64,000 nt of DNA from Minisyncoccota bacterium. Lineage in GTDB: Bacteria > Patescibacteriota > Minisyncoccia > Phycocordibacterales > UBA918. The stretch is taken from assembly GCA_036275695.1 (NCBI GenBank), contig DASUDI010000021.1, forward strand, positions 5,311 through 69,310. Direction: 5' to 3'. The notes beneath the pieces were generated by a model. The model was given only the letters and a program-made list of their open reading frames with translations. It searched no databases and had not been told where the DNA came from. Below, piece by piece: positions 34,777-64,000 of the stretch (position 1 is its first letter; each line of letters opens with the position of its first letter). A program made the position numbers and the translations under genes.

Positions 34777-34850
34777 GGGCCCGTAGCTCAGTTGGCTAGA
34801 GCGTCTGTTTTGCACTCAGAAGGTCGCTGGTTCAAGTCCAGTCGGGTCCA
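34777..34850 (+). tRNA. tRNA-Ala (anticodon TGC); CCA not encoded
   Basis: Hand-folded. Acceptor GGGCCCG/CGGGTCC. D-arm GCTC-AGTTGGCTA-GAGC. Anticodon stem-loop TCTGT-TTTGCAC-TCAGA (U31·U39 mismatch). T-arm GCTGG-TTCAAGT-CCAGT. Discriminator A. Confidence 0.75.
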
Positions 34851-34851
34851 C

Positions 34852-34969: not shown

Positions 34970-35040
34970 CAGGCTATAGTATACCGGTAGTACGCGTCCA
35001 TGGGGTGGATGTAGACTGGGTTCAATTCCCAGTAGCCTGA
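34970..35040 (+). tRNA. tRNA-Pro (anticodon GGG); CCA not encoded
   Basis: Hand-folded. Acceptor CAGGCTA/TAGCCTG with C1:G72 and an A73 discriminator, the bacterial tRNA-Pro identity set. D-arm GTAT-ACCGGTA-GTAC. Anticodon stem-loop CGTCC-ATGGGGT-GGATG. T-arm CTGGG-TTCAATT-CCCAG. Confidence 0.65.
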
Positions 35041-35056
35041 CACGCACAAATCGCTG

Positions 35057-40312: not shown

Positions 40313-41641
40313 CTATTTAGGTAGTGTGACGACAATCTGAGTTCCAACTCCTTTGATGGACTCTACACCAATTGAACCATTCATTAGATCGATAAGTTGT
40401 TTGGTGATCCACATACCAAGTCCCGTACCCACAATTGCATCCACCTCTGTCCTACGAACTCTGAAAAAAGGTGCAAAGAGGTTCTTTTGATTTTCAGCAC
40501 TAATTCCCATTCCAGTATCCTTAACACGTAATTCAATTGATGGCCCGATATCAGAGACTTCAAGGGTAATAATACCCTTGGGTGTGTATTTAATGGCATT
40601 ACTTACAAGATTTGTAAGTGCTTGATGTAGTCGTTTACCATCAATATTAATCATGACATCACCAAAAAGTCCTTCCTTTTTAAGAGTGATGTTTTTTGCC
40701 TCAGCTTGAAATCTCATAATATCAAGTACAGCAGTAATAATAGGTTGAATATTAGTTCGCGTCGGTTGCATTTCAAGTTTGCCGGATTGTATGCGTGCAA
40801 CATCAAGCAAATCACCCACAAGGATCACCAATTGTTCTGACGAACTCTCGATGCGCTCAGCAAACTTTTTCACCTCATCAGTGGCGTCATCTTTTTGTCG
40901 AATCATACTCGCGTAACCACGCATTGAGGTAAGTGGTGCACGCAGCTCATGAGCTATCATATTAGTAAACATGTCTTTTGCGTCACTTGCTTTTTTTGTT
41001 TCCTTATAGAGATATGAGTAATCAATTAAACGAATGTGTCGCATAATTAGTACGAGGATCACAATGAGCATTGCGATAAGCCAATATACAGCCTCTATAA
41101 TTCTATTTGCAAAAAGGGTATCTATGTGACTGAGTGAGGTTTCCGTAAAAATATAGTACACATCACCCACATCAGTCCGTACGAGTCGATAACTCCTCCA
41201 ATAACGTACTCCATTTTCGGCATACGGTGTGATGATACTTTCATCTGGATGTGTGTTCGTAATTCTATAATTTGTGCTTAAAATATCACTTGTATCAGCA
41301 TCCGCATTGTGTACAATGACTTCAACATCAGGAATTCCTTCCTTTGCAACAATGAATCTTCGAATATCTGGATTTAATTTAGTAAGTGTGTCTATCTCTT
41401 GCTTAATAATTTCAGGATCAAAATTAACTGCCTCAACATATGAAGCGAATACATCATGCATGATGCCAATCCTATCCTTCTCTAAGCGCTCTTGATTTTG
41501 TCTGCCAGCGTCAAGGAATTTTTGTCCAGAAATTATGAATGCAACAGGTATCACAACGATGAGAACCATCGTCATTAACACCTGGGGGTGCTTATGGATA
41601 TACGCGTAACTACTTTTTAACGGGGTGATAAAATGCGACAT
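40313..41641 (-). CDS. two-component sensor histidine kinase (no cognate response regulator adjacent)
   Basis: 442 aa. Two TM helices flank a sensor domain of about 150 aa. HisKA H-box IAHELRAPLTSMRGY. HATPase_c N/G boxes (…LVSNAIKYTPKG…, …DTGMGIS…, …GTGLGMWI…). Confidence 0.8.
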   Translation of the reverse strand: MSHFITPLKSSYAYIHKHPQVLMTMVLIVVIPVAFIISGQKFLDAGRQNQERLEKDRIGIMHDVFASYVEAVNFDPEIIKQEIDTLTKLNPDIRRFIVAKEGIPDVEVIVHNADADTSDILSTNYRITNTHPDESIITPYAENGVRYWRSYRLVRTDVGDVYYIFTETSLSHIDTLFANRIIEAVYWLIAMLIVILVLIMRHIRLIDYSYLYKETKKASDAKDMFTNMIAHELRAPLTSMRGYASMIRQKDDATDEVKKFAERIESSSEQLVILVGDLLDVARIQSGKLEMQPTRTNIQPIITAVLDIMRFQAEAKNITLKKEGLFGDVMINIDGKRLHQALTNLVSNAIKYTPKGIITLEVSDIGPSIELRVKDTGMGISAENQKNLFAPFFRVRRTEVDAIVGTGLGMWITKQLIDLMNGSIGVESIKGVGTQIVVTLPK

Positions 41642-44424
41642 TATAGGGTAACGTTGTCAATTGGCTTGGGGAGTTTACGATTTGTCGCATACATGCCGAG
41701 AAGCATGAGAACAAGCCCCAGTGAAACTATTGAAATCGAAGCAATGAGTAAGAGCATATTTCCGGTGAGGAATGATGGCGTGAGTTCGCTAAACGAATCA
41801 TTTACAAATGGATTTGTCTGCGCAAACGCTTCAGCGGTCTTTACAAAAGGAAATGCAGCGCTTTTTGCAACAATGGCGCCAGTATTATCGGTAATACCAA
41901 CATAGATCTCATGATCACCATCTTCTATTTCTTTATCAAAAATATAACTCCAACTTCCTTCCGCGTCAGTTTTAACTGAAACTACTATTGGTGTGCTATA
42001 AATATAGAGATTGATAAAACTATGCGGTAATGCCTTGCCGGTGATAAGCGCTTTTGGAGTACCTGTCGCTGAATCTGGATGTATTGTAGAAATTGACGCA
42101 ATTGAAAGAACATCATCACGAACAATTCCTGATTCTTTTGCGGACTCATACGCAAGTAATGACTCCTGTTCTGGATTGTTTGGGTCATATCCACGCGCAA
42201 TTTCTGCACCATCAGAAAAACCATCAGTATCTGTATCGGCAACAAATGGATTTGTTTTATATAAATTAATTTCATCAAAATCTAGAATACCATCGTTGTC
42301 AGAATCAATATGTGCTCTGTTGGCGAGTCGGTCTGCGATGATGCGCTCATTGTTTTCTGCCGTGTCAAGTACGTTAAAAGTCAATTGAGATACATATGTA
42401 TTGATGGAGTCAATGAGATTCTTATCTAATAAAATCTCTGATAATTTTGAAATTGTGTCAGATTGAAAGGATTCAATTGTACTTTTAAGAGCGCGGGTCG
42501 CGTCAGTGTCATTTGTTCGTATTGCATGAGCGTATTGTGTCACATACTCATTAAGCTTATTTCTATACTCAAGAATTAGATTTTTGACCTCCGTGCTCGT
42601 ATGTGTACCTTCATCTAAGGAACTATTTAATGATTGGGTAAAATCCTCCACAGACTGTATATATGTGACTTTCTTGTCAGACACTGCAACACTCTCAGCA
42701 CCTTCGGCGTCATCTGCATCGTTCGCGGGTGAAACTGATGGTGTACTCTGAGTTGTTTTTGTAAGTTCCGCATCAACTGCTCGGTATTCTTCTATAAGTT
42801 CCTCTTGTTCAGGTGTGTACTCAATTTCAGAAACATTAAATATGCGTATACCGGTTTTATCAGAAGTATATTCTCCATACTCATTCTTAACACGTGCAAA
42901 TAGTATATATTCACCATTTGGTGAATTATTCGTATTCCACGCATATTTCCACGTTGTATCGCTAATTTTAAATGCAGTACCAATAAATATTTCACGTAAT
43001 GAGTTATTGGGTGTGTGATATAACTCAATTTTGCGCGCGAGAGGCGCGAATAACGAAATTTCTACAAAGTTTGAGAGTGGACTTTGCTTTGAAAGTGACA
43101 CACTAACTTGAGGAGTTTTTCCCTCCGTAGCAATAGTGGTTGTGGAAGAAGCAACCACAGCATCTGTAACATTATCTAAAATCTCATCAACGTTGTCTAC
43201 GGTACGAGTCACCTTGTTGCTCTCAATGATATTGTCTTGGTAATACCCTTTTGCGAAAAAGTAATACGTACCGTCATTTAGTGTTTCTGAATTTAATACA
43301 TATCGCCACTCGTCAATACTTTTCTTAATTGCATTACCTATGAGAAATTGCGTACCACTTAATTTATTAAGTGCGTAAATTGTAACCTTAGATGCATCTG
43401 TACTAGATAATAATTTCATAGACACGTCACCGCGTAGTGGAGATGGTTCATCAATGGTGAGACTAACTCGCGTCGATGTAGAAGTGTCGTTATTAGAATC
43501 TGAATCAGAAGGCGCTTGATCAAGAACACTAGCGAGCTCATTGTGAACTGTATACGTCTCGGAAAAACCTTGGTTATATGAACCAAAACTATTAGAAATA
43601 TTTACAGAAATACGATATTCCCCATTAAGGTAGTAATGTGTGTCCCAACTGATTTGCCATTCTAGATCATTTACTTTATGTGCTGTGCCGAGCGGATGAG
43701 TTGTGCTTGTGTCAATGTGCTTAGCATACACGGTAACATTTGTTGCAGAAGGTACCGTAATAATAATGGGTACGATATCATGAAGTGGCACCTGCCCATC
43801 AATTCTAATATTCGCAGAAGGTGTTTCATCAACATCAGTGAGTTCACCCGAATCTTCAGGTGATGACGTTGCTATCAGACTTGCGGTGTTCCTGTATCCA
43901 CGAGCATAATCCTCAATTTCTGAATTGTTATTGATAAAACCAAAGTGGATTGAGGTTAAAAATGCCCCTATGAGTAGGACCACCATCCCCGCGGTGCGGG
44001 AAAACTGTGAAATAGTAATATTCTGAATAACAGGAAATCGAGTGATTGAGGGGATAGAAACCCTAAATTCAGGTCGCTTCATGAGCACCCCTCCTTTCCG
44101 CGACTGACGCTTCTTTTTTGATAATAAGGTGCTGTTATGAAGTTTAGTCTCAACCACTTTCTTCGTGTTATTTGAAATTTTAACAACATGCCTCTTACCT
44201 TCAAGACGTGCGAGTGTTAATTTTTTAGGTAACTCGTTTTGATTAATCTTTGAACGTGAAGTGTGCGTGGGAGTGCGTCTCATTGTTTTTTTGAGACTTT
44301 GTGTCGGTATGACTTTGGAAGTTCGTTTAACTTCTTCACGCGACTTAATGCCGATACGCTTACGTGTCACATGCTTAGCGCTCGCGCTCGAACGAGGGAC
44401 TGCTTTGGGTGCAGGTTTTACCAT
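41641..44424 (-). CDS. hypothetical large cell-surface protein with internal repeats and Asp-rich Ca-binding-like motifs
   Basis: 927 aa. Lys/Arg-rich N-terminal ~115 aa, then a TM/signal anchor (AGMVVLLIGAFLTSIHFGF). Three similar modules (…NGEYRISVNISN…, …DGTYYFFAKGYY…, …NGEYILFARVKN…). DSDNDGILDFDE…DTDTDGFSDGAE (thrombospondin-type-3-like). C-terminal TM anchor plus a basic tail. Confidence 0.55.
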   Translation of the reverse strand: MVKPAPKAVPRSSASAKHVTRKRIGIKSREEVKRTSKVIPTQSLKKTMRRTPTHTSRSKINQNELPKKLTLARLEGKRHVVKISNNTKKVVETKLHNSTLLSKKKRQSRKGGVLMKRPEFRVSIPSITRFPVIQNITISQFSRTAGMVVLLIGAFLTSIHFGFINNNSEIEDYARGYRNTASLIATSSPEDSGELTDVDETPSANIRIDGQVPLHDIVPIIITVPSATNVTVYAKHIDTSTTHPLGTAHKVNDLEWQISWDTHYYLNGEYRISVNISNSFGSYNQGFSETYTVHNELASVLDQAPSDSDSNNDTSTSTRVSLTIDEPSPLRGDVSMKLLSSTDASKVTIYALNKLSGTQFLIGNAIKKSIDEWRYVLNSETLNDGTYYFFAKGYYQDNIIESNKVTRTVDNVDEILDNVTDAVVASSTTTIATEGKTPQVSVSLSKQSPLSNFVEISLFAPLARKIELYHTPNNSLREIFIGTAFKISDTTWKYAWNTNNSPNGEYILFARVKNEYGEYTSDKTGIRIFNVSEIEYTPEQEELIEEYRAVDAELTKTTQSTPSVSPANDADDAEGAESVAVSDKKVTYIQSVEDFTQSLNSSLDEGTHTSTEVKNLILEYRNKLNEYVTQYAHAIRTNDTDATRALKSTIESFQSDTISKLSEILLDKNLIDSINTYVSQLTFNVLDTAENNERIIADRLANRAHIDSDNDGILDFDEINLYKTNPFVADTDTDGFSDGAEIARGYDPNNPEQESLLAYESAKESGIVRDDVLSIASISTIHPDSATGTPKALITGKALPHSFINLYIYSTPIVVSVKTDAEGSWSYIFDKEIEDGDHEIYVGITDNTGAIVAKSAAFPFVKTAEAFAQTNPFVNDSFSELTPSFLTGNMLLLIASISIVSLGLVLMLLGMYATNRKLPKPIDNVTL

Positions 44425-50923: not shown

Positions 50924-51661
50924 TTAATAAACACACAGTGGCGCCAATCCAAAAAAATGATATATCTGAAAACCAAAGTCACTCATCAATATACTCTGTG
51001 ACGAGAGCAACGATACTCCGAGGACAATAAGGAATACTCCACTGAACTTTGAAAGATATCGTTCATAGCGTGCGTAGCCTGTAAAAGCGTGGACTGACTG
51101 CGCATATAATAAACCTGTCAAAATAAAGGGGACTGCCAAACCCAATGAAAAAGTAAGTAATAATACTCCTCCCTGCATAAGCGTTGCAGACTGTGACGCG
51201 AGGAGAAGGATTGAGGCGAGAATGGGTCCGGCACAGGGAGACCATCCGAGTGCAAATACAACTCCTAGTAACAAAGGGCGAGCAAATCTACCTTTTTCCA
51301 TATGTGGCACGCGAATTCGCTGAAAGGTATTTTTAAGTAGCGGTAGTTCAAAGACTCCAAGTATCGCAAGACCAAACAGTATAATTAACACCGATCCAAC
51401 TTGAGAAAAAATTACTTTGTAATGCTGAGTCCATGATCCAAGATAAGCACTCAATAGACCAAATAGAAAAAAAATAATACTAAAACCAAACGTAAAGGTA
51501 ATGGTACGTATCGTAATCTCACGTCGCTTATTGTGACGCACCGTATCAGGCACCAAGGACGCGAGAAAAGCCGGCACAATGGGAAGTGTGCATGGCGCAA
51601 GAAACATGACGACTCCACCCGCAAACGCACTCACCATGAGTATAAGTGAAAGTTCGTGCAT
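50924..51661 (-). CDS. ccdA: cytochrome c-type biogenesis protein CcdA (DsbD-family transmembrane thiol:disulfide electron transporter)
   Basis: Start taken at MHELSLILMV… Conserved Cys in TM1 (LAPCTLPIVPAF) and TM4 (GWSPCAGPILASI). Confidence 0.75.
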   Translation of the reverse strand: MHELSLILMVSAFAGGVVMFLAPCTLPIVPAFLASLVPDTVRHNKRREITIRTITFTFGFSIIFFLFGLLSAYLGSWTQHYKVIFSQVGSVLIILFGLAILGVFELPLLKNTFQRIRVPHMEKGRFARPLLLGVVFALGWSPCAGPILASILLLASQSATLMQGGVLLLTFSLGLAVPFILTGLLYAQSVHAFTGYARYERYLSKFSGVFLIVLGVSLLSSQSILMSDFGFQIYHFFGLAPLCVY

Positions 51662-51662
51662 A

Positions 51663-52217
51663 CTACTGTGTGAGAGTTTGTAATATACTGGTAAGCTCTG
51701 CTTCGTCGAAAACACCGCGCGCGTGATACACCTTCACGCCATCCTTATCGTACACAAGAGTCTCTGGCATCGCGTAGCCGTTGATTGAAGTATAAAAATG
51801 ATCACTCGGGTCTAAAAGAACGTGAATATCCTCAGATACAGGATACACACTCAGAAATGAACGTACCGTACCGACTTGTTCCATGCGGTTAATGGCGAGA
51901 ACGTATATATCTTGCGCGTACGTGTGTGCCAATCGAGCAAGTATTGGTAGTTCTGTTTGAGAAAATGGTGTCCACGTTGCCCATGAATTAATAATAATAG
52001 GCTTGCCACGAAAATTGTGTAAATTGACGGGATTTCCTGAGAGGTCTGTATACATCTGTCCATCATCTGGCTCAATGACTTTTAGATCATTTTCAAGATC
52101 ACCCAAGTAACCACCTGGTGACACAGACAAAAAGGTAATCATCCCAAGGGCACATACCACAACCATGATGAGAGTAACCTGTTTCCAATATTGCCGCAGA
52201 TGCACTCCCATATACAC
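51663..52217 (-). CDS. TlpA/ResA-like thioredoxin-fold protein lacking the catalytic CxxC (WATWTPF in place of WCxxC)
   Basis: 184 aa. N-terminal TM, then …FRGKPIIINSWATWTPFSQTELPIL…, which aligns to the TlpA active-site region. Both cysteines are absent. Confidence 0.6.
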   Translation of the reverse strand: MYMGVHLRQYWKQVTLIMVVVCALGMITFLSVSPGGYLGDLENDLKVIEPDDGQMYTDLSGNPVNLHNFRGKPIIINSWATWTPFSQTELPILARLAHTYAQDIYVLAINRMEQVGTVRSFLSVYPVSEDIHVLLDPSDHFYTSINGYAMPETLVYDKDGVKVYHARGVFDEAELTSILQTLTQ

Positions 52218-52748: not shown

Positions 52749-54086
52749 CTACTGAGCACTATTTACGCCTTCAACATACTCCATCCCTTCATCAACGGTG
52801 ATTTGATAGCGGTTATGTTCTTCAGTTGCTTTTGCAATATACATAACGGTGATAATAAAAATTATAATGATGATAAGTAGGGATATGAAAAACTTTTTGT
52901 ACACGCGTACAAAACCTATGATTGTCTCCATAACATCCATTGTCTCGCGAGTCGCGTGCATACGCGCGCGCAAATCAAGTACACCATATCGCAGCGGCGC
53001 GGTGATGTGCGTTTGTGGTACGGAGCGGGTATTGGGTTGTCCTCTCTCCCATAACATACTTCGTGGTGTGGTGTGTAAGTGAACATGACCCTCCTTTGGA
53101 TCTACACCAGCGAGTATGAGCATTCTACGTACATACGCACGCACCATCCACACAAGACTCGAAATAATAAGTGTCAAAATAGACACAACAATAAGCGTCG
53201 CTTTCAGCGGGATAACCCAAAAATATACTGTTGCGGATTCACTCTTTACACCATCAGTCCCGTAGCCAAGGGTAACAATTGCCTTATAGCGACCAATATC
53301 GCTAAGGTTAAAGTCACTACTCCATGTATAATGATATTCACGTATACTTTTCGGCAGTACGTTTCCAAATTGGGTCTGATAATTAACGGGGATCACTCCT
53401 CGTTCGGTACCCCACATATTAGTGATACGTATTTCACCTCGCGGGAGAAGGTGCACGTTGCCTTTATTCTCAAATCGTAGTGAAAATTCTGCCTGTGGTT
53501 TTTCAAGTATGGAATCAGATAGTCGAAATTCACGAATGGAACCTTGCTCGATTACGTCACCTTCGACCCTCAAAAAAAATAATGAGGTGACTGCTTGTGA
53601 TGTCCTGACGAGAGGACCATTTGCAATATTATTTGGTGGTTCGGTACTTATGAGTACTGCTGCATAATGTCCTCCCGGTGACGCATTCTTTGGAATGTCC
53701 ACAATGAACGATATCTCCTGAGTCTGTTCTGGCTGTATCTGGTGTGGCCCAGGGGGAATCTCAACCCACTCCGCAAGTGTTGCGCCATCGGTATCTGGCG
53801 AATCGATAATTTGTGCCTCATCTTTTTTGACGGAAAAAAATTCACCTTGCCCATTTTCGCCCGTTGGTGAAAAATTTACCACTTCTGCATATACCGTCAT
53901 GGGGAATGGGTTGCCGTTTACAACTTTAATAGTACTTTGCCACACATCTCCGGGAAGCGCGGTTATTTGAAAAAGTGGTGGGGTGACACTCAAAATTTGC
54001 GAAGATTGAGCGTTTACCGAAGATGAGCACATGAGCAGAAAAAAAGTGCCAATGATCTGTGTGAATCTAAAAAGTACATTTCTCAT
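52749..54086 (-). CDS. hypothetical cell-surface protein (signal peptide, beta-rich ectodomain, C-terminal TM anchor; DUF916/DUF3324-like organisation)
   Basis: 445 aa. Signal MRNVLFRFTQIIGTFFLLMCSSSVNA. Then …LSVTPPLFQITALPGDVWQSTIKVVNG… C-terminal TM (LKATLIVVSILTLIISSLVWMV) plus a tail. It is a paralogue of the next gene. Confidence 0.5.
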   Translation of the reverse strand: MRNVLFRFTQIIGTFFLLMCSSSVNAQSSQILSVTPPLFQITALPGDVWQSTIKVVNGNPFPMTVYAEVVNFSPTGENGQGEFFSVKKDEAQIIDSPDTDGATLAEWVEIPPGPHQIQPEQTQEISFIVDIPKNASPGGHYAAVLISTEPPNNIANGPLVRTSQAVTSLFFLRVEGDVIEQGSIREFRLSDSILEKPQAEFSLRFENKGNVHLLPRGEIRITNMWGTERGVIPVNYQTQFGNVLPKSIREYHYTWSSDFNLSDIGRYKAIVTLGYGTDGVKSESATVYFWVIPLKATLIVVSILTLIISSLVWMVRAYVRRMLILAGVDPKEGHVHLHTTPRSMLWERGQPNTRSVPQTHITAPLRYGVLDLRARMHATRETMDVMETIIGFVRVYKKFFISLLIIIIIFIITVMYIAKATEEHNRYQITVDEGMEYVEGVNSAQ

Positions 54087-55087
54087 AAGTTGTTACGTGT
54101 TAGATCAATATCATGATGACGTGGGTCGCGTTTCCCTTCACGCACATGAACCATAAGGCGCTCTGAGTCATCCATATCAGTATCATCGAAATAACGTTTA
54201 TGAACATACCACGCGCCAAAAATTACCACAGTAATTAAGCCTGAGAGTAGTATGAGTAAATACTTTATCGGAAAGGCGTAAAAGAAACTTGTGTCTTGGA
54301 CCGTCGCTCGCTGTGTTGAACCGTATTCAACTGATAAAAAAGCCTTGTATTTACCGAAAAGACCGTCACGCGATATCTTGGTTTCGAATACATGCTCACC
54401 ATTGGGAGGAACCTCTACGCGATCCTCATTGACGCGGGCAACCCCCACTTCCTTGCCCTTGCTATCATAAATAATGATTTCTCCTTCAGGAACAAGACTC
54501 TCACTGCTCGGATTGTTAAAGGTGTAGCGGGCTACATTATTAGAATCATTGGTAATGAAGCGATTTACAACAAACCCCGAAAGTTTGAGAAATTCAGTAT
54601 TCTTCTCCTCAATGGTGACATTAATGATCGTTCCTGGTGCCTGACCCTGTGCCACAAGTCGCTCTGCCTCGTCGCGATTATCACCATGACCAAATCCAAT
54701 AAATGCATGATATGTACCTGGTGACGGGGTTGGGTGCACACGGAGTGTAATGGGGATTTTTATTTCATCACCCGGTCGCACGAGGATGCCAAGTCTGCTA
54801 ACTTCAATCCACGACGCAAGTGAGGTGGTACGGTCACTCTCAACTGGTGGCAGGAATTCTTCAATTGTCCCACCATCCTGAATCGAAATGTTGTTGACGG
54901 AGGGATAAAGAGTGGCTGGTTGAGCTCCCGTATTTTTAATAGTAATTTCCTTTTGAATAATATCCCTTCCCTCTGCATCTATATCCATTACCAGTGGCGA
55001 TACCGAAAAGGTGGGCGCCGCGTATGCGACGACAGGTGTCGTGTATAGCGAGAGTGTTATTAAACTTATGATGTAAAAATATCTCAT
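54083..55087 (-). CDS. hypothetical cell-surface protein, paralogue of 52749..54086
   Basis: The start is taken at MRYFYIISLITLSLYTTPVVAYA (signal peptide). Then …FSVSPLVMDIDAEGRDIIQKEITIKNTG… C-terminal TM (IKYLLILLSGLITVVIFGAWYV). Its start abuts the stop of the giant gene. Confidence 0.5.
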   Translation of the reverse strand: MRYFYIISLITLSLYTTPVVAYAAPTFSVSPLVMDIDAEGRDIIQKEITIKNTGAQPATLYPSVNNISIQDGGTIEEFLPPVESDRTTSLASWIEVSRLGILVRPGDEIKIPITLRVHPTPSPGTYHAFIGFGHGDNRDEAERLVAQGQAPGTIINVTIEEKNTEFLKLSGFVVNRFITNDSNNVARYTFNNPSSESLVPEGEIIIYDSKGKEVGVARVNEDRVEVPPNGEHVFETKISRDGLFGKYKAFLSVEYGSTQRATVQDTSFFYAFPIKYLLILLSGLITVVIFGAWYVHKRYFDDTDMDDSERLMVHVREGKRDPRHHDIDLTRNNL

Positions 55088-55088
55088 A

Positions 55089-58000
55089 CTAAAAAACGGG
55101 TACTGAAATGTATCGCATGTGTGCTTCGTATGTTCCCGCATCCTGCATTTGACGTACGAGTAATCTAAATACAACATCAATAAACTCGCCCACCACCGGC
55201 TGTGAACTATACCCCACCTCATCAAGTGTTGTTGTGCTCATACGTGCCCATGTATCGACTGCTGAAAACCGAGTTGAGCCACCATACAGTGTATCATCTG
55301 CAGAGTGGTAACCAAAACAACTGCGAGCACTCGCGTTACACCCTGAAGCCCATGAGGTCGGGGTACCGTTGGTACCTATGACCTGATCGATTTTTTCACC
55401 AAATGATGTGAGCATATCCCCTGAAAGAGTCGTGAAGAGTCGATATCCTGAAGTTCCATTTGTGTCAATGGTGAAACGATGTGCACCTTCAACAAACGTA
55501 TCAACAGGGACTGAACCAAATGGAATTGTGGACGGTGTTGTTGCGATATCAGTAGTGATTCCTTCAATGGTCTGTCCAGAGGATATCCCTGTCATAGTAA
55601 AGACCAGACTTGCGCCCTTGGTCAGAAGACTTGGGTACGTTTCTCCCTGCGCGAGTGGCACGACGCTATTATTAGTCGCGTCATATGCCCTAAAATAATA
55701 CACTCGATTGACGCGTGCGCCACTACTCCTCAATGTAAACGCAAACTCAGTTGCAGCATTTATTTGATGATCAAAGGTGCTTGTAGTGGTGCCACTTTCA
55801 TTATGTGTACCGCATCCGACACCAACTTGTGACACACACGCGCCCACATCAGAAAGTAATTTTGTTTGTATAGACACGTCATCTGCTCCACCCCCGTTCT
55901 CATAGCACCAGTAGGAAAGATTGGTGCATGTACCCATTTCAGATACAAAGGTCGATGTTGCAAATGTAGGTGATTCTGAAAACTGCAGACGAAATCGAAC
56001 ATTAGTCCCCACGGCACCGTTGGATTCTTGGAGCGTAAGACGCAATTGAATAGGATTATTTACATCAATGTCAATGGGAGCCACTGTTTCATTCGCAAGT
56101 GGAGTTGTGGGTGTTTCATTTTCCGCATCATCATACCATCTCCAATTTTTTGATTCTGCACCATATCCCACCGTGCGAATTGTGGGGTAATTATTATACG
56201 CAGTCAGTAGTGTTCCATTTGCTTCAGTCATCCTAAAACAGTATGACGTCCTATCAGCGGCACCATTATTTTGAATTGCCCAGTCATACTCAATATCCTG
56301 ATTGGCATTTGTTTTATATGGTGCGAGCGCGGTATTGTTTTGCTCTTCAAAGGTTCCCGCGACGTCTGAAACAGACAAAAGTAAATCACCACCCGTAGGC
56401 GGGTCTCCTGAAAGTACCGCCCCATCAGTAATCGGAGTTGAGGTACCTCTCCATAATGCGGTAGTACTCCCAATCGCACCCAGATTTTTCCACTCAGTTG
56501 TTTGAATAGCACTACACGTGGTGATTCGTGGTGCGTATTGAAGCTTAAATGCGTCGGTATTCGCAATAAGTGCCGCGGCACTTATTGCGAGTGACATGCG
56601 TAGTCGCAGTGTTCCACCATTAAGTATCGGGGTGTCGAACCCTGTCATCTCCGTATTTTCTCCAAGGTCAGTAGCACCCACTGGCCATGGATCCGTAGGT
56701 TTTAAAGCGTTGTTATTGACATAGAGTCTGTAGTAATTTTGAGATATCTTTCTACGTGCGGTTGGCCACTCAACAACCTCTGTTCTGTAATTTCTTGTGT
56801 CACCCGTATTACTCATCCATATTTCATACTGTGTCGTAGAGATAAGACGAGTCGCAATCATTGGTTCAGGCCACGATGTTCCCGTCCCCGAACTTCTGTT
56901 ATTCATAAAAATTGAAGCGATACCCACGTCATCAAGTGTTTTACCGATATTTATATTTGAAGTAAAGGGAGCCGTACCACCTGACTGCGTGCCATTTGAG
57001 CGGGTGACCACCATCGTGGTGCCCACCGTCTGAAGATTCTCAATAATCCACGCCACTGATACGTGCCCTGTTGGTGTTGTTGCCGCGCCATCTAAAAGAA
57101 ACGACACCTGTCCAACACTTGAAAGCCACACCTCGTGTCCAAAGTTTGCATGCGAATCAAGCCCTGATCCAACACGCTTTTGTGTATGCACAAAAGCTCG
57201 CGTAAGACTTCCGATTGCGGTAATTGATTCAGTTTCAGTACTTCCCGCAGATGAGTAGGTGTGTTCAGCGCGCTGAACTACCCAGTTAGAGCCGGTAAAT
57301 TCTACTACCGCGTAACTTACATACACCGCATCACTCCCCGCTTCACCGCGCGTAAATGTTGCCGTGTCAGCACCCGCGTCCCATGACGCGGTGGAAAGTA
57401 CGGTATTGTAGTCCGCTCGGCCTGAGTCAGGATTGTATTGACCAGTGACGAACACTGCCACATCAGTATCATCAGTGATACCCGCGACAGTATTTGACGT
57501 AAGCGTCGTACCTGTCGTGGTGTACGCGCGCGCTTGCTGCTGTCGCACAATGAATTCATTCTCTCCCCCGGCAGTTCCTTTGTACTCTACAATTTCCCAC
57601 GCAACTCTTGTATCACCCGAAGGAGTACCATTTCTTTGAAAAGTGATACTATTAGTGATATTTGAGGGATTGGTGATATACACCGTAACATCGTTAGCGT
57701 TCTGGTTTCCAGTCGCACCAGAATCTCCTGCGCCCGTACTATGCGTATTGGTAATGCGAATAAATGCCGAGGTCGAGGCACTCGGTGCTACATAGTCAGT
57801 CCCTGCGTTAATGGTAAGTGAGCCACCAGTAATTGTCGAAACACCTCGCTGCACTCGGAAGTCAGTGGGTAATTTAATGGTCACCTCGGGATAGACCGAG
57901 TATGCGGGGAGTGCCGTTCCTGCGTTTGTAAGACGAAAACAATAGGTGGCACCTTCCACTGATGACGCGGTTGCGTTGAGTGAGTACTCGAATTCAACGA

Positions 58001-60560
58001 ATTGAGTTTCTGAGAGAGTAATAGAACCCGTCTGAGATGTTGTTTCTCGCTGTCCTCCATTTGAGGTCACGAAGCTGGCATTTTCGTCATTCATACCTCC
58101 ACTTGATACGGTAATATTTGTGGTGTTATTGCCTTCAACAAGTTGTGACGCGGACATGTCCCACGCACCACCTCCAGTACTCACGTCACTCCACCCTGTT
58201 GCAGCACTACATGTTGAGATTTTTTGCGCAAATTCAAGGCGGTATTGGATACCTTGCGTAGTGGTGCCACCTTCATTTGATACTTGCACACGAAGTCGCT
58301 GTATATCAAGTTGTGCTACTTTGGTAAGTGGCGTATCAGCAGTACCACCCGTAGCCGAAGTCGCGCCAGACTCTGTTCCATCGTTGTTGCGCCAATGATA
58401 GTGTGTTTGCGTAGGTATACTTTTATATAGTCGCGTTACTCCTGGTACAGCAACATTTGTATTAGGTGCCACGTTGGCACCACTTGCATTAATGTGCGTA
58501 TTAGGATTAGTGATTTGTAAATCAAGTGATTGATTATTTGTAGAACTGGCGGTTATATCAAGCATTGTATATATACACGCACTCTGTGTCGAAGAAACGC
58601 TGATTGAGCCGACGAATGTAGATGTTCCTGTGGTCGAAAATCCATCAGTGTCAGTTGTACCATACTGAGATTCAGTCCCTATGTACGACTCACTCGCGCA
58701 ATTATATGGTGCAGAAGTATCATACTCATAGTACAGTTTGATATTATCGAGTCCATATACCACATCAACCGTTCCACTCGCGGTAATGGTTATACCGGAA
58801 ATGGTGTGTGGGCCAGCCGTCTGCGCCTCAATATTAAAACTACCTCCAAGGTATACATTTGAAGTGGTTATATCGATACTTGTGCGCTGTGTTCCAGCAC
58901 TGGTAACCAAGACATCCGCGGTAACAGTTGCTTCTGGGTACACCGAGTAGGTAATCTCTGATGCTGAACCAGCATCAGTAAGCCTAAAACAATAAGTCCC
59001 TCCATCGGTTGCGTTGGTAGTTGGTGAGATTGAATATTCTAATTCCGCAAACTGACTTGATGTAAGCGTGAGTCCACCCACCTGTGATGAAGTGTCCTTC
59101 ACTCCTCCATTAGGAGTGAGAAATGTTGTGTTCTCATTCGTTACTCCTCCCGTTGAAACTACTATATCGGTGGTGTCACTTCCATCGGTAATATTACTTG
59201 AATTAAACATATCCCAATCACCTCCACCCGCACCAACATCAGTCCAGCCGGACGCCGCGGAACACGTAGACACCTTTGATGCGTATTCAATGCGATATTG
59301 TTTTGAGGTCGACGTTTTATTTCCTTCGTTTGATATTTCAAAACGAAGACGTTTTCCCACGAGTTTGCCAATCGCAGAGAGGTGCGTGCTCTCAGTGCCT
59401 CCTGTTGCTGAAGTAGCTCCCGATTCACTTCCGTTATCATTACGCCAATGAAAACGCATTTGTCGCAAATCAACTTTTTGCACCGTACCTGCACCAGAAA
59501 TTGAAAGCGCTGTTGTGGGATCTATGACTGGTGAGCTTGCGGCCACAACATCAATAGACGGATTGGTCATCTGAATATCGATAGTATCACCCGCACCTGC
59601 ACTTGATTGAACATCAGCAACAACATATACGCATAACGCTTTTGTGGTGTTGATATTTATACCTGATGCGGTAAAAACGGATGAGCCGTCAGCACCACTG
59701 AATCCATCCGCATCGGTGGACCCATACTGAGACTCAGTACCCGCATAACTTTCACTTGCGCAGTTATACGGCGATGAGGTATCGTTTTCGTAGAATAATT
59801 TAATATTTTTAAGGTTTGAGGACGCGTCAATAGTACCGTGTTCATATACAGTGATTGAAGTCACATCACGGTTACTCACGGATGAGTTTTCAGTTATTGC
59901 AAAACTCCCACCAAGATGCGCGTTATTCGTTCCCGCATCAATATTTTGCATCGTGCCCTGCGTTGATACAGTGATATTAATTACTGGCGTATAGGTAACA
60001 TACGCGTAGAGTGCGTAGTTGATACAGTTGGTGGCACCTCCCGCACCGGGCTTAGTACAGGTGGTACGAACACGCAACCCGTCAAGATCAGATTGCGTGA
60101 GCGTGAGCCCCGTGAAGTTGACACTTGACCACGTGCTTACGGTACTAATAGTGACATTCTGTGTCGTGCCAATCTGGGTAGTTTCTGCGGCATTCCAAAG
60201 TGAAACCTGGAACTGCATATTTGAACCACCTTCTTTGTGATACAAAAATACGGTCACCGCGGACGCAGTCTGAACATTTGAAATCGTACCCATTTGGTAC
60301 GAATCGAGCTGATTGCGCGTGAATGTAAGATAATCACCTGTTGTACTGGGTGCTGTTGTTGAACTCACACCATCATTAACACAATCATAATTATTCGCAG
60401 TAGCACACGTTGTTCGCGCCCCCTGAGAGGTGTTTCCTGCACCATCAGGGTTTATTTGTTGCCCCAATGCCTCAGTAATAAGTGTATATATAAAAAAACC
60501 ACACAGCACAAATAGAGCAGTTATACCTGCAACGGTGACCATTTCCATGCTCTTACGCAT
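55089..60560 (-). CDS. giant (about 1820-aa) repeat-containing extracellular protein
   Basis: A single uninterrupted ORF. N-terminal signal anchor (MVTVAGITALFVLCGFFIYTLI). Ser/Thr/Gly/Asn-rich. It contains a ~355-aa tandem duplication. A …WR…YCFR[LM]T[DN]AG-type subdomain is repeated at least 4 times. Confidence 0.6.
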   Translation of the reverse strand: MRKSMEMVTVAGITALFVLCGFFIYTLITEALGQQINPDGAGNTSQGARTTCATANNYDCVNDGVSSTTAPSTTGDYLTFTRNQLDSYQMGTISNVQTASAVTVFLYHKEGGSNMQFQVSLWNAAETTQIGTTQNVTISTVSTWSSVNFTGLTLTQSDLDGLRVRTTCTKPGAGGATNCINYALYAYVTYTPVINITVSTQGTMQNIDAGTNNAHLGGSFAITENSSVSNRDVTSITVYEHGTIDASSNLKNIKLFYENDTSSPYNCASESYAGTESQYGSTDADGFSGADGSSVFTASGININTTKALCVYVVADVQSSAGAGDTIDIQMTNPSIDVVAASSPVIDPTTALSISGAGTVQKVDLRQMRFHWRNDNGSESGATSATGGTESTHLSAIGKLVGKRLRFEISNEGNKTSTSKQYRIEYASKVSTCSAASGWTDVGAGGGDWDMFNSSNITDGSDTTDIVVSTGGVTNENTTFLTPNGGVKDTSSQVGGLTLTSSQFAELEYSISPTTNATDGGTYCFRLTDAGSASEITYSVYPEATVTADVLVTSAGTQRTSIDITTSNVYLGGSFNIEAQTAGPHTISGITITASGTVDVVYGLDNIKLYYEYDTSAPYNCASESYIGTESQYGTTDTDGFSTTGTSTFVGSISVSSTQSACIYTMLDITASSTNNQSLDLQITNPNTHINASGANVAPNTNVAVPGVTRLYKSIPTQTHYHWRNNDGTESGATSATGGTADTPLTKVAQLDIQRLRVQVSNEGGTTTQGIQYRLEFAQKISTCSAATGWSDVSTGGGAWDMSASQLVEGNNTTNITVSSGGMNDENASFVTSNGGQRETTSQTGSITLSETQFVEFEYSLNATASSVEGATYCFRLTNAGTALPAYSVYPEVTIKLPTDFRVQRGVSTITGGSLTINAGTDYVAPSASTSAFIRITNTHSTGAGDSGATGNQNANDVTVYITNPSNITNSITFQRNGTPSGDTRVAWEIVEYKGTAGGENEFIVRQQQARAYTTTGTTLTSNTVAGITDDTDVAVFVTGQYNPDSGRADYNTVLSTASWDAGADTATFTRGEAGSDAVYVSYAVVEFTGSNWVVQRAEHTYSSAGSTETESITAIGSLTRAFVHTQKRVGSGLDSHANFGHEVWLSSVGQVSFLLDGAATTPTGHVSVAWIIENLQTVGTTMVVTRSNGTQSGGTAPFTSNINIGKTLDDVGIASIFMNNRSSGTGTSWPEPMIATRLISTTQYEIWMSNTGDTRNYRTEVVEWPTARRKISQNYYRLYVNNNALKPTDPWPVGATDLGENTEMTGFDTPILNGGTLRLRMSLAISAAALIANTDAFKLQYAPRITTCSAIQTTEWKNLGAIGSTTALWRGTSTPITDGAVLSGDPPTGGDLLLSVSDVAGTFEEQNNTALAPYKTNANQDIEYDWAIQNNGAADRTSYCFRMTEANGTLLTAYNNYPTIRTVGYGAESKNWRWYDDAENETPTTPLANETVAPIDIDVNNPIQLRLTLQESNGAVGTNVRFRLQFSESPTFATSTFVSEMGTCTNLSYWCYENGGGADDVSIQTKLLSDVGACVSQVGVGCGTHNESGTTTSTFDHQINAATEFAFTLRSSGARVNRVYYFRAYDATNNSVVPLAQGETYPSLLTKGASLVFTMTGISSGQTIEGITTDIATTPSTIPFGSVPVDTFVEGAHRFTIDTNGTSGYRLFTTLSGDMLTSFGEKIDQVIGTNGTPTSWASGCNASARSCFGYHSADDTLYGGSTRFSAVDTWARMSTTTLDEVGYSSQPVVGEFIDVVFRLLVRQMQDAGTYEAHMRYISVPVF
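57878..59993. repeat. intragenic tandem duplication, two copies of about 1.06 kb, inside the giant surface-protein gene
   Basis: The protein blocks …NNAHLGGSFAITENSS…YCFRLTDAGSASEITYSVYPEATV and …SNVYLGGSFNIEAQTA…YCFRLTNAGTALPAYSVYPEVTI are collinear, about 355 aa apart. Two similar antisense ORFs end about 1.05 kb apart (58398 and 59451). Confidence 0.7.
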
Positions 60561-60622
60561 ACATAAATACCTCCGAATATATCGGATACCTCTATTATGA
60601 AGCAAAACACCAGAAATGCGAC

Positions 60623-62437: not shown

Positions 62438-63181
62438 CTAATGATAAAATGACTCTGCGAGAAGTATTGAAAAATCAATAAATGTCATCCTTCCATCGTT
62501 ATTGAAATCAAAAGTAAATTTGCGCGAAATCCACGCAGCCATAAACTTCGACACATCATCCATATCCACATCATTATCGTTGTCTACATCAGTAACTACG
62601 TTGATTTGTGCCTCCGCGGTAAGCACACCATCTGAACCCGTTATGGCGAGTGAGACAATGCCCACGCCATCATTAGTCGCATTGACTGAGGTGCCATTTC
62701 CATCACCCGCAATGAGTTTGGTACTTTGCAGTATAATGCGTGCATCACCAGATTTGACCGCGTGAGCACGAATTCGCGCGACCTGGTGATTGCCTACAAA
62801 ACCCTTTCTGAAGGTACCGCCCTGCATATAAATTTTTCCATTTTCAGCGTATGGATTTTTATTCCATAAGGATATGACAGAAGTGCCCACATCTATACTA
62901 TCAATAACAAGAAATTCCTCTGGATACGTAAGTATAATATCGACTGCGTTAATGGGGACGTGTGCGGAAATGGTGACGTCTACATAAAATTGCTGATCCT
63001 GAGTCACCTTGTCGTCTGAAACTTGTAAGGAAATATATGAAGAGTTTTGAGTAGTTACTGCCGCGAGACCCGCGAAGATGGTGGTCAAAAATACAAATGA
63101 AAACGCGTATCGAACCGTGGTGTGGTGCTTTGCTTGATAATTGGGATAAAATAATTTAATGAAAAAACGTAACATACACAA
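62438..63181 (-). CDS. cohesin-domain plus C-terminal dockerin-like module protein
   Basis: Cohesin-like beta-sandwich segment (…FYVDVTISAHVPINAVDIILTYPEEFLVIDSIDVG…). Two dockerin-type Ca-binding repeats at the C-terminus (DVDNDNDVDMDDVSKFMAAW and DFNNDGRMTFIDFSILL). Confidence 0.55.
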   Translation of the reverse strand: MCMLRFFIKLFYPNYQAKHHTTVRYAFSFVFLTTIFAGLAAVTTQNSSYISLQVSDDKVTQDQQFYVDVTISAHVPINAVDIILTYPEEFLVIDSIDVGTSVISLWNKNPYAENGKIYMQGGTFRKGFVGNHQVARIRAHAVKSGDARIILQSTKLIAGDGNGTSVNATNDGVGIVSLAITGSDGVLTAEAQINVVTDVDNDNDVDMDDVSKFMAAWISRKFTFDFNNDGRMTFIDFSILLAESFYH

Positions 63182-63850: not shown

Positions 63851-64000
63851 TTACGTGACGATATGTTCAACATCATCAATTTCTTTTGCGATATGTTCTT
63901 GCGCCCTAGTAATATCAGCACGGATTTCGTCTATGAGCGCGGATTCAGACTTAGTCAATTTACCTTTTCGTGAAATTGTGAGCGCCTCTACATTTTTATC
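63851..64000 (-). CDS. C-terminal fragment of an unidentified coiled-coil protein, running off the window
   Basis: The reverse complement gives an open frame …DKNVEALTISRKGKLTKSESALIDEIRADITRAQEHIAKEIDDVEHIVT* with the stop at 63851..63853. It is absent from the ORF track because it is incomplete. Confidence 0.3.
   Translation of the reverse strand, partial: DKNVEALTISRKGKLTKSESALIDEIRADITRAQEHIAKEIDDVEHIVT

Follow-up and report, generated by a model that had tools for sequence, protein, structure and literature searches.

The 64,000-nt stretch of contig DASUDI010000021.1 analyzed here (hereafter the window) carries on its minus strand the gene of a giant protein of 1,823 residues. We find that this locus encodes a modular beta-sandwich surface protein built from undescribed domains, and that it lies in a cluster of a Candidate Phyla Radiation (CPR) bacterium containing homologs of WxL-interacting proteins (WxLIPs). 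An internal duplication of the giant protein, which a first-pass annotation made from the sequence alone had taken for a near-exact tandem repeat prone to copy-number change, is instead ancient and fixed in the protein family.

Identification of the giant gene

All residue numbers refer to the 1838-aa open reading frame (ORF) of the first-pass annotation (55089..60605), in which the ATG start is residue 16. The frame of this ORF is correct and uninterrupted, while its start, a TTG at 60605, lies 15 codons too far upstream. We place the start at the ATG at 60560, because a GGAGG Shine-Dalgarno sequence (60574-60570) precedes it by 9 nt and because the resulting protein is a 100% match to the NCBI entry 'hypothetical protein VFV22_02080, Candidatus Paceibacterota bacterium', likewise of 1,823 aa. 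In a comparison with the 82%-identical ortholog at locus L004, nonsynonymous differences per site (pN) were 0.07-0.20 in every domain and synonymous differences (pS) 0.65-0.79, the latter being saturated; by these values the gene is real and under purifying selection.

Thr and Ser together account for 25% of the residues, and the protein ends in ...RYISVPVF. No LP.T[GAN] motif, as expected of an LPXTG-type sortase anchor, was found anywhere in the protein. Pfam and NCBIfam scans of the giant protein and 26 orthologs gave no recurrent match, and PDB searches with its sequence and profile gave none.

Domain architecture and predicted fold

The domain map was based on hhalign profile-profile comparison of slices from the 26 orthologs and on AlphaFold secondary structure. 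The order is signal peptide, N, [X-W]x2, Mid, W, W, C (Table 1), with the sub-boundaries of Mid (M1-M3) being approximate. The four W domains match one another over their full length (hhalign E-values of 7e-94 for W1 and W2, ~4e-18 and 4e-17 for W1 and W2 with W3, 1.9e-14 for W3 and W4, and 2.5e-7 and 2e-9 for W1 and W2 with W4), and all four copies share the invariant positions L-R, T-C, W, G, E, Y-x-F-R and Y-P. The at least four copies of a W...Y[CY]FR subdomain recognized in the first-pass annotation are thus borne out. X is present only twice (E 2.9e-63 for X1 and X2). The tandem repeat unit of ~350 aa is a two-domain module, X + W, of which W occurs fourfold in the protein and X only twofold. 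In the same hhalign comparisons N, Mid and C were unrelated to W, X or the remaining domains.

The two AlphaFold half-models (pLDDT 94 and 91) are all-beta and together comprise about ten beta-sandwich domains, at least one of which resembles, as modeled, the jelly-rolls of lectins and carbohydrate-binding modules (CBMs). Foldseek searches of the PDB with the half-models returned generic multi-beta-sandwich matches only (TM-score <0.25), whole multi-domain models being poor queries. The 20 cysteines of the mature protein make up ten conserved domain-wise pairs, including the T-C...Y-C-F-R pair of W1 to W3 (Cys448-Cys539 in W1). At the end of the hydrophobic N-terminal helix, 67 of 68 orthologs have Ala46 and 53 of 68 have A or V at position 44 (-3), with the remaining segment only 21.5% conserved. 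This is predicted to be a classical signal-peptidase I site, so that the mature giant protein is probably freed from the membrane by cleavage. The all-beta models, the signal-peptidase site and the ten Cys pairs all agree with the earlier suggestion of an extracellular or surface protein made of beta-sandwich modules.

The internal duplication is old and stable

The two ~355-aa blocks previously delimited at residues ~205-560 and ~560-910 correspond to units 1 (aa 208-562) and 2 (aa 563-911). They are indeed collinear, aligning globally over 349 columns with 6 gap positions and an amino acid identity of 47.9% (44-49% in BLASTP of residues 166-596 against 511-936, E down to 2e-63). The ~1.06-kb duplication is real, but its description as near-exact fails, the codon-aligned DNA being 52.1% identical. 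Both units have no exact word longer than 11 nt in common, which is at chance level (200 shuffles: mean 9.8, maximum 14). The offset of ~1.06 kb expected in a DNA self-comparison was recovered by blastn as a single 107-nt stretch with 70% identity at offset 1062, without a long near-identical copy, and Tandem Repeats Finder reported no repeat for the giant gene. The long exact matches between nearly identical DNA copies that would allow an unstable tandem repeat to misalign are accordingly absent. Two antisense stop-free stretches end 1053 nt apart, at 58398 and 59451, as had been observed; they result incidentally from the duplication of the coding sequence.

Unit numbers were determined with a hidden Markov model (HMM) of the unit in the best 120 of at least 456 homologs of the giant protein, these 120 being 46-82% identical to it. 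In nearly all of them the number of full units is exactly two. For 229 of 232 units the nearest relative was the unit at the same position in another species and not the sister unit, with a mean identity of 46.8% between sister units and of 51.9% and 46.9% between orthologous ones. Because same-position units are nearest relatives and two units are near-universal, we conclude that the duplication is older than the radiation of the family and that its copies were never homogenized. As judged from these comparisons it is ancient and fixed and has undergone no concerted evolution, and the family shows no copy-number change among close relatives. Unit number differs only at great evolutionary distance (0 in L058, 1 in P0092 and ~3 in a few long variants).

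The consequences that had been drawn from a near-exact repeat do not follow. Since the DNA copies have no exact words in common beyond chance, slipped recombination has nothing to act on here, and a hotspot generating strain-level length variation is contradicted by the near-universal presence of two units and their orthologous relationships. Assembly collapse is impossible at this site, as the copies are too divergent.

Two WxLIP homologs are encoded directly downstream

One base separates the stop codon of the giant gene from the ATG of the next gene, encoding homolog 1 (TAGTATG), and the stop codon of the latter overlaps the start of the gene of homolog 2 (ATGA). The giant gene is thus translationally coupled to two genes for membrane-anchored WxLIP homologs. 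Both proteins comprise a signal peptide, two beta-rich domains and a transmembrane (TM) helix, and they are 25% identical (BLASTP, E 7e-18).

WxLIPs consist of a DUF916 domain (PGBD), a DUF3324 domain (HBD) and a TM helix, and hold WxL surface proteins on the cells of Lactobacillales and Listeria (PMC10599100). Pfam family PF06030 was matched by 83 of 120 members of the WxLIP-homolog family over nearly the whole profile and was by far the commonest family (best E 2.4e-5), all matches lying below Pfam's own cut-off. Homolog 2 itself matches PF06030 with an E-value of 0.098 at profile positions 19-118 of 121, while the second domain of the homologs, searched alone, gave no PF11797 match. The top PDB-wide matches of the family profile are the EfmWxLIP1 structures (9i25_C and 9i1y_A, E 0.06-0.08). 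In hhalign comparisons with real WxLIPs from annotated Enterococcus and Listeria plasmids, the family scored 93.4% against two references and 96.3% against five (E 1.8e-9, 241 columns spanning both domains), and seven controls scored at most 0.5%. These three lines are not independent, all of them being sequence-profile similarity to one family. By this similarity we regard the two downstream genes as remote homologs of WxLIP (DUF916-DUF3324-TM), and the cluster holds at least one protein with the WxLIP hallmarks of signal peptide, DUF916, DUF3324, TM helix and a length of ~320-380 aa.

A WxLIP homolog directly follows the giant gene in 49 of 56 species-level loci with enough flanking sequence, and two do so in 38. 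When a set of 5.8 billion proteins was searched by profile for more distant relatives of the WxLIP type, the matches listed were close family members only. PDB entry 9i25 has several chains, including C, and might be a complex; it is named EfmWxLIP1 like chain A of 9i1y. A literature search found no paper describing the EfmWxLIP1 structures 9i25 and 9i1y.

The C domain recurs in a small secreted protein

Two motifs are conserved in the C domain: D-T-N-A-T-x-G-Y-x-[VLI] in a hairpin (motif 1) and A-G-x-Y-x3-[IVL]-x-[YF]-[ILV]-x-[VI]-P-x-F-end in the last strand (motif 2). Domain HMMs were run against all ORFs of the window and of the syntenic loci. A full-length C domain (E ~1e-22) was found at the end of a ~370-aa secreted protein encoded ~7 kb upstream of the giant gene in L001, L003 and L005, and eight further loci hold small C-domain ORFs. 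In the source genome the corresponding gene would lie beyond window position 64000. These loci encode both a small and a large secreted protein with a common C-terminal domain of 175 aa, in the 160-190-aa range of WxL clusters.

A WxL cluster is defined by adjacent genes for at least one WxLIP and at least two WxL proteins (PMC10599100). At most four genes may separate members under the published rule, and the small C-domain gene is five genes from the giant gene. Two proteins with a WxL domain (PF13731, with dual Trp-x-Leu and the pattern D(W-8), R(W-6), GTxAG-W-x-L) were not found. PF13731 had no match at E<=1 in the 26 giant orthologs, nor in three small C-domain proteins. Comparison of the C domain with real WxL domains by hhalign gave 0.4% and 0.9%, in the last 18-29 columns only, with thin profiles in the one case and 123 versus 12 sequences in the other. 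Relative to WxL, motif 1 of the C domain is one residue shorter, has no Arg and has Tyr for Trp, and motif 2 has [YF] for Trp. The replacement of Trp is not decisive on its own, since Y or F is also seen at this place of motif 2 in some proteins of real WxL clusters.

With Pfam and both hhalign comparisons non-significant, the likeness of the C domain to WxL seen by eye is a lead only. Filing the locus as a WxL cluster was set aside for the same lack of significant C domain-WxL homology, although the layout is alike and the WxLIP component is a family member. In real Enterococcus WxL clusters, Tyr or Phe stands for the second-motif Trp in several proteins (ITYNL, ITFDL, ISYQL), namely those at L083:5032-5748, L083:6857-11335, L085:3745-5289 and L085:6177-6785, the last being annotated as hypothetical only. 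The 'WxL' motif is thus looser than its name.

Distribution and variants of the giant family

A scan with one genome per species yielded 77 loci, nearly all in CPR bacteria of the Paceibacteria/Parcubacteria type (Kaiserbacteria, Nomurabacteria, Lloydbacteria and others). Mean identity per domain among the 26 orthologs is fairly even at 42-56%, with Mid highest at 56%. Most genome matches start at residue ~195-207, and the N domain varies or is replaced in more distant members. Differing N-terminal add-ons give rise to length classes of ~1830, ~2060, ~2460 and ~2700 aa, with the first unit beginning at residue 190, 441 or 834. The longer variants carry an N-terminal BNR_2 (sialidase-like propeller) or DUF7483, and L058 has Mid-W-W-C after an unrelated N-terminal part of 1,300 aa. 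On the grounds of these extensions, heads and the L058 architecture, we consider the C-terminal part the constant base of the protein and the N-terminal part its variable end.

Some genomes have two giant copies: L037 and L050 lie on one 425-kb contig (UBA3466), and L024 and L052 in one metagenome-assembled genome (MAG). The second copies, L037 and L052, are without WxLIP homologs directly downstream.

W and Mid modules in other proteins

A search of 1.84 billion representative proteins with a W profile built from the four copies gave matches in 2,521 clusters (50% identity) for E<=1e-3 and in 1,368 for E<=1e-10, with proteins of 342-7,591 aa and 1 to 21 W copies; P0241, a protein of 2,536 aa from a Chloroflexota bacterium, has 13. 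In ten W-domain proteins no Pfam model covered the W region. A type IV pilin motif was present at the N-terminus of 5 of the 154 best W-domain proteins, including the most W-rich, and by this motif W arrays can ride on pilin-like proteins in other phyla. The most W-rich proteins (10-13 copies; P0241, P0243, P0244 and P0330) begin with the type IV pilin N-methylation motif. Among the giant proteins, the pilin motif G-[FLV]-[ST]-L-x-E was found in 0 of 120 family members and no N_methyl match was obtained. A type IV pilin-like nature of the giant protein was ruled out on these grounds and by its having an [AV]-x-A site instead.

Giant ORFs running off the locus were found at L079:3503-9127 (Aenigmatarchaeota MAG, 171-kb contig; at least 1,875 aa) and L082:3878-9100 (Verrucomicrobia MAG; at least 1,741 aa). 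Among the domains of the giant protein these two ORFs have Mid only, at 47-51% identity to aa ~891-1269. Either Mid is mobile among CPR, DPANN and other lineages, or the L079 and L082 contigs are mis-binned.

Genomic neighborhood

The giant gene is part of a block that is syntenic in the window, L001, L003, L004 and L005. Its gene order is cohesin protein, 219-aa coiled-coil protein, dockerin-like protein, TM/beta-propeller-like protein (521-595 aa) and giant protein. After the giant gene come those of the two WxLIP homologs, of a TM protein of ~160 aa and of Redoxin and DsbD, joined in L005 by DsbA. A gene for a protein of 521-642 aa is always found directly upstream of the giant gene in L001-L005. 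Redoxin and DsbD/CcdA genes occupy the same position in L002, L004 and L005, with a DsbA-like gene added in L005 (18659-20629). It is plausible that these genes form a dedicated disulfide system that would serve the ten Cys pairs of the giant protein.

The cohesin-domain protein of the upstream block has ~580 aa with Pfam Cohesin and Big_13, and a ~375-aa Big_6/DUF4215 protein with Dockerin_1 is also encoded there. Cohesin and dockerin genes lie at L001:5071-6828, L003:4879-6594, L005:5044-6834 and L005:635-1771 of the syntenic loci. There are hints here of a cohesin-dockerin assembly on a CPR cell surface. In the 1.08-Mb CPR genome of L002 (L002:305-9836) the cohesin and dockerin genes are missing, and a type IV pilus operon (T2SSE, T2SSF, PilM, two N_methyl pilins) immediately precedes the giant cluster.

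In the window, 11 kb downstream of the giant gene and beside a histidine kinase, 41641-44424 (-) encodes a large secreted-type protein of 927 aa that carries Big_13 together with bacterial TSP3 repeats and in which domain HMMs found none of the giant protein's domains. Essentially all ORFs of at least 150 aa in the window (1-64000) are on the minus strand, and its GC content is 39-48%. The only tRNA genes in the window, Ala-TGC (34777-34851) and Pro-GGG (34970-35041), are on the plus strand.

Table 1. Giant gene, its domains and neighboring genes in the window
Feature	Position	Strand	Description
Giant gene, true coding sequence	55089..60560	-	1,823 aa + TAG stop
GGAGG Shine-Dalgarno of giant gene	60570..60574	-	read from sequence
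Signal peptide (aa 16-46)	60468..60560	-	hydrophobic helix, then [AV]-x-A site; N-terminal helix in AlphaFold model
N (aa 50-207)	59985..60458	-	beta-sandwich, two Cys pairs; model m29fc7b0e9b09
X1 (aa 208-380)	59466..59984	-	unit 1, first half; beta-sandwich in model
W1 (aa 381-562)	58920..59465	-	unit 1, second half; ...FHWRNDNG...TC...YCFRLTDAG...YP
X2 (aa 563-732)	58410..58919	-	unit 2, first half; hhalign
W2 (aa 733-911)	57873..58409	-	...YHWRNNDG...YCFRLTNAG
Mid (aa 912-1286)	56748..57872	-	~three beta-sandwich domains; model m86e182e18757
W3 (aa 1287-1479)	56169..56747	-	YYRLYVNN...YCFRMTEAN
W4 (aa 1480-1663)	55617..56168	-	NWRWYDD...YYFRAYDATN
C (aa 1664-1838)	55092..55616	-	C-terminal module, proposed docking domain
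WxLIP homolog 1 (334 aa)	54083..55087	-	signal peptide, DUF916-like, second Ig-like domain, TM helix, short tail
WxLIP homolog 2 (445 aa)	52749..54086	-	paralog of homolog 1, longer C-terminal tail
Small TM protein, 160 aa	52220..52702	-	syntenic 139-172-aa gene in L001-L005
Redoxin	51663-52217	-	Pfam
DsbD/CcdA-type membrane protein	50924-51715	-	Pfam
Upstream neighbor, up to 595 aa	60623..62410	-	TM segment, acidic low-complexity, TolB-like beta-propeller signal (weak NCBIfam)
247-aa protein	62438-63181	-	dockerin-like or EF-hand C-terminus; conserved block upstream of giant gene

Proposed role and alternative explanations

Little has been learned so far about partner attachment and envelope composition in CPR bacteria other than Saccharibacteria, Paceibacteria among them. 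We propose, with somewhat more confidence than doubt, that the giant protein is a secreted beta-sandwich fiber on the CPR cell whose C domain is docked on the two WxLIP homologs and whose N-terminal end points outward for glycans. It would be a secreted, non-enzymatic, fiber-like surface protein of Paceibacteria (CPR/Patescibacteria). Cleavage of the signal peptide would yield a mature fiber of about ten disulfide-stabilized beta-sandwich domains, the stalk of which may have been lengthened by the ancient [X-W] duplication. Non-covalent docking of the C domain on the two WxLIP homologs in the membrane, along with the small secreted C-domain protein, would hold the giant protein on the cell. 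The free, lineage-variable N-terminal end and the lectin-like jelly-rolls would then face outward, possibly binding glycans of a partner or host, or of the cell's own envelope, and the protein may thus have an adhesive role.

Alternatively, the giant protein could be the main subunit of a surface layer (S-layer) or another envelope lattice, with the WxLIP homologs serving as stalks, as SlaB holds SlaA in Sulfolobus, and the small C-domain protein as a second lattice component. A single-copy, syntenic core gene beside housekeeping genes in many species would fit this role, as would the even conservation over all domains, the Thr + Ser content of 25%, the string of Ig-like and jelly-roll domains and the translationally coupled, membrane-anchored partners. 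However, the lineage-specific BNR_2 and DUF7483 heads and the occasional second copies look more like an adhesin, no known S-layer protein was matched in sequence or fold among the top hits, and monomer models allow no inference of lattice contacts. We consider an S-layer rather unlikely for these reasons. Far less probable still is that the giant protein serves a type IV pilus as accessory or tip adhesin, the pilus machinery either displaying or delivering it. The position of the L002 cluster directly after a pilus operon and the pilin-type N-methylation motif at the start of the most W-rich proteins elsewhere (P0241, P0243, P0244) speak for it, but the motif is missing from all 120 family members and present in only 5 of 154 W-domain proteins, the signal-peptidase I site of the family, [AV]-x-A, is of the ordinary kind, and no pilus gene occurs in the block of the window, L001, L003, L004 and L005. 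An unstable, near-identical tandem repeat or an assembly artefact, as the first-pass annotation implied, is scarcely credible. The collinear duplication and the 1053-nt spacing are real and X-W number does vary over very deep distances (0 in L058, 1 in P0092, ~3 in a few), but 52% DNA identity, a longest common word of 11 nt, the silence of Tandem Repeats Finder, two units in nearly all 120 homologs and 229 of 232 orthologous nearest relatives refute it for the giant locus.

Beyond the fiber itself, it is possible, though we hold this only tentatively, that Paceibacteria have a surface apparatus conserved across the lineage in which the two WxLIP homologs hold the giant and small proteins via an undescribed C-terminal docking domain, and which would be an old and far-diverged counterpart of the Gram-positive WxL system. 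This domain would be either a replacement of WxL or a WxL domain diverged beyond recognition. If so, the giant protein (W, X and Mid) would be the fiber or lattice through which ultra-small episymbionts contact their partners, the WxLIP anchoring principle would extend beyond Bacillota, and several widespread 'dark' domains would gain names and roles. A concrete candidate attachment machinery would also become available in a group of which hardly any member is in cultivation. Literature searches found no paper on CPR together with WxL systems and nothing specific on giant surface proteins of Parcubacteria.

A near-exact, copy-number-prone repeat was the wrong reason for interest in this locus and is of little consequence, and the underlying protein family is more useful. 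The family, for which Pfam and NCBIfam have no model, is conserved across at least 77 species of the Paceibacteria type, and its modules W, X, Mid and C are in no curated library. The W domain, widespread beyond CPR with ~2,500 clusters and as many as 21 copies in one protein, and in some cases carried on pilin-like proteins, merits a family definition. A conserved, secreted, lectin-like fiber with a plausible anchoring would be a concrete and testable candidate for attachment.

Comparison with known systems

The wider W-domain superfamily has the same module of ~180 aa over its full length, but in other architectures, some of them N-terminally pilin-like, and with a highly variable copy number, whereas the giant protein's orthologous group is fixed at four. 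In fold, at least one domain of the giant protein is similar to the galactose-binding-domain-like CBM6/32/35/36, F-type lectins and discoidin; identity to CBMs is at most 12%, and no Pfam or NCBIfam match assigns it to a CBM or lectin family. The W domain further differs from CBMs and lectins in its own signature, W-R-x-D/N...T-C...Y-C-F-R...Y-P, and its conserved disulfide. The top Foldseek matches of both half-models, the Ig-like region of Enterococcus PrgB, the legs of integrin alpha and the Chlamydomonas mastigoneme protein Mst1, are likewise beads-on-a-string beta-sandwiches. At TM-scores <0.25 and identities of 7-11% this is a generic architectural likeness only, and their anchoring (LPXTG, TM helix or filament assembly) is unlike that of the giant protein.

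The closest parallel is offered by the WxL clusters of Lactobacillales and Listeria, which comprise a large WxL protein, a small WxL protein and a WxLIP (Hassan & Williamson, PMC9772566, PMC10599100). Unlike these, the present cluster has two WxLIP paralogs instead of one and a Patescibacteria host, its giant protein has no LPXTG, and the passengers X, W and Mid are unrelated to the leucine-rich repeat, internalin and Ig modules of large WxL proteins of Firmicutes. Neither sequence nor profile comparison gave the C domain a significant match to WxL, and both Trp are replaced by Tyr/Phe. Like the WxL domain, however, it is C-terminal, spans 175 aa and combines a hairpin motif ending in G-aromatic-x-hydrophobic with an aromatic motif in the last strand, the two being 111 residues apart compared with ~106 in small WxL domains. 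Here, too, a large and a small secreted protein have the same C-terminal domain of ~175 aa beside WxLIP homologs, and the layout of the cluster mirrors that of the Gram-positive WxL clusters.

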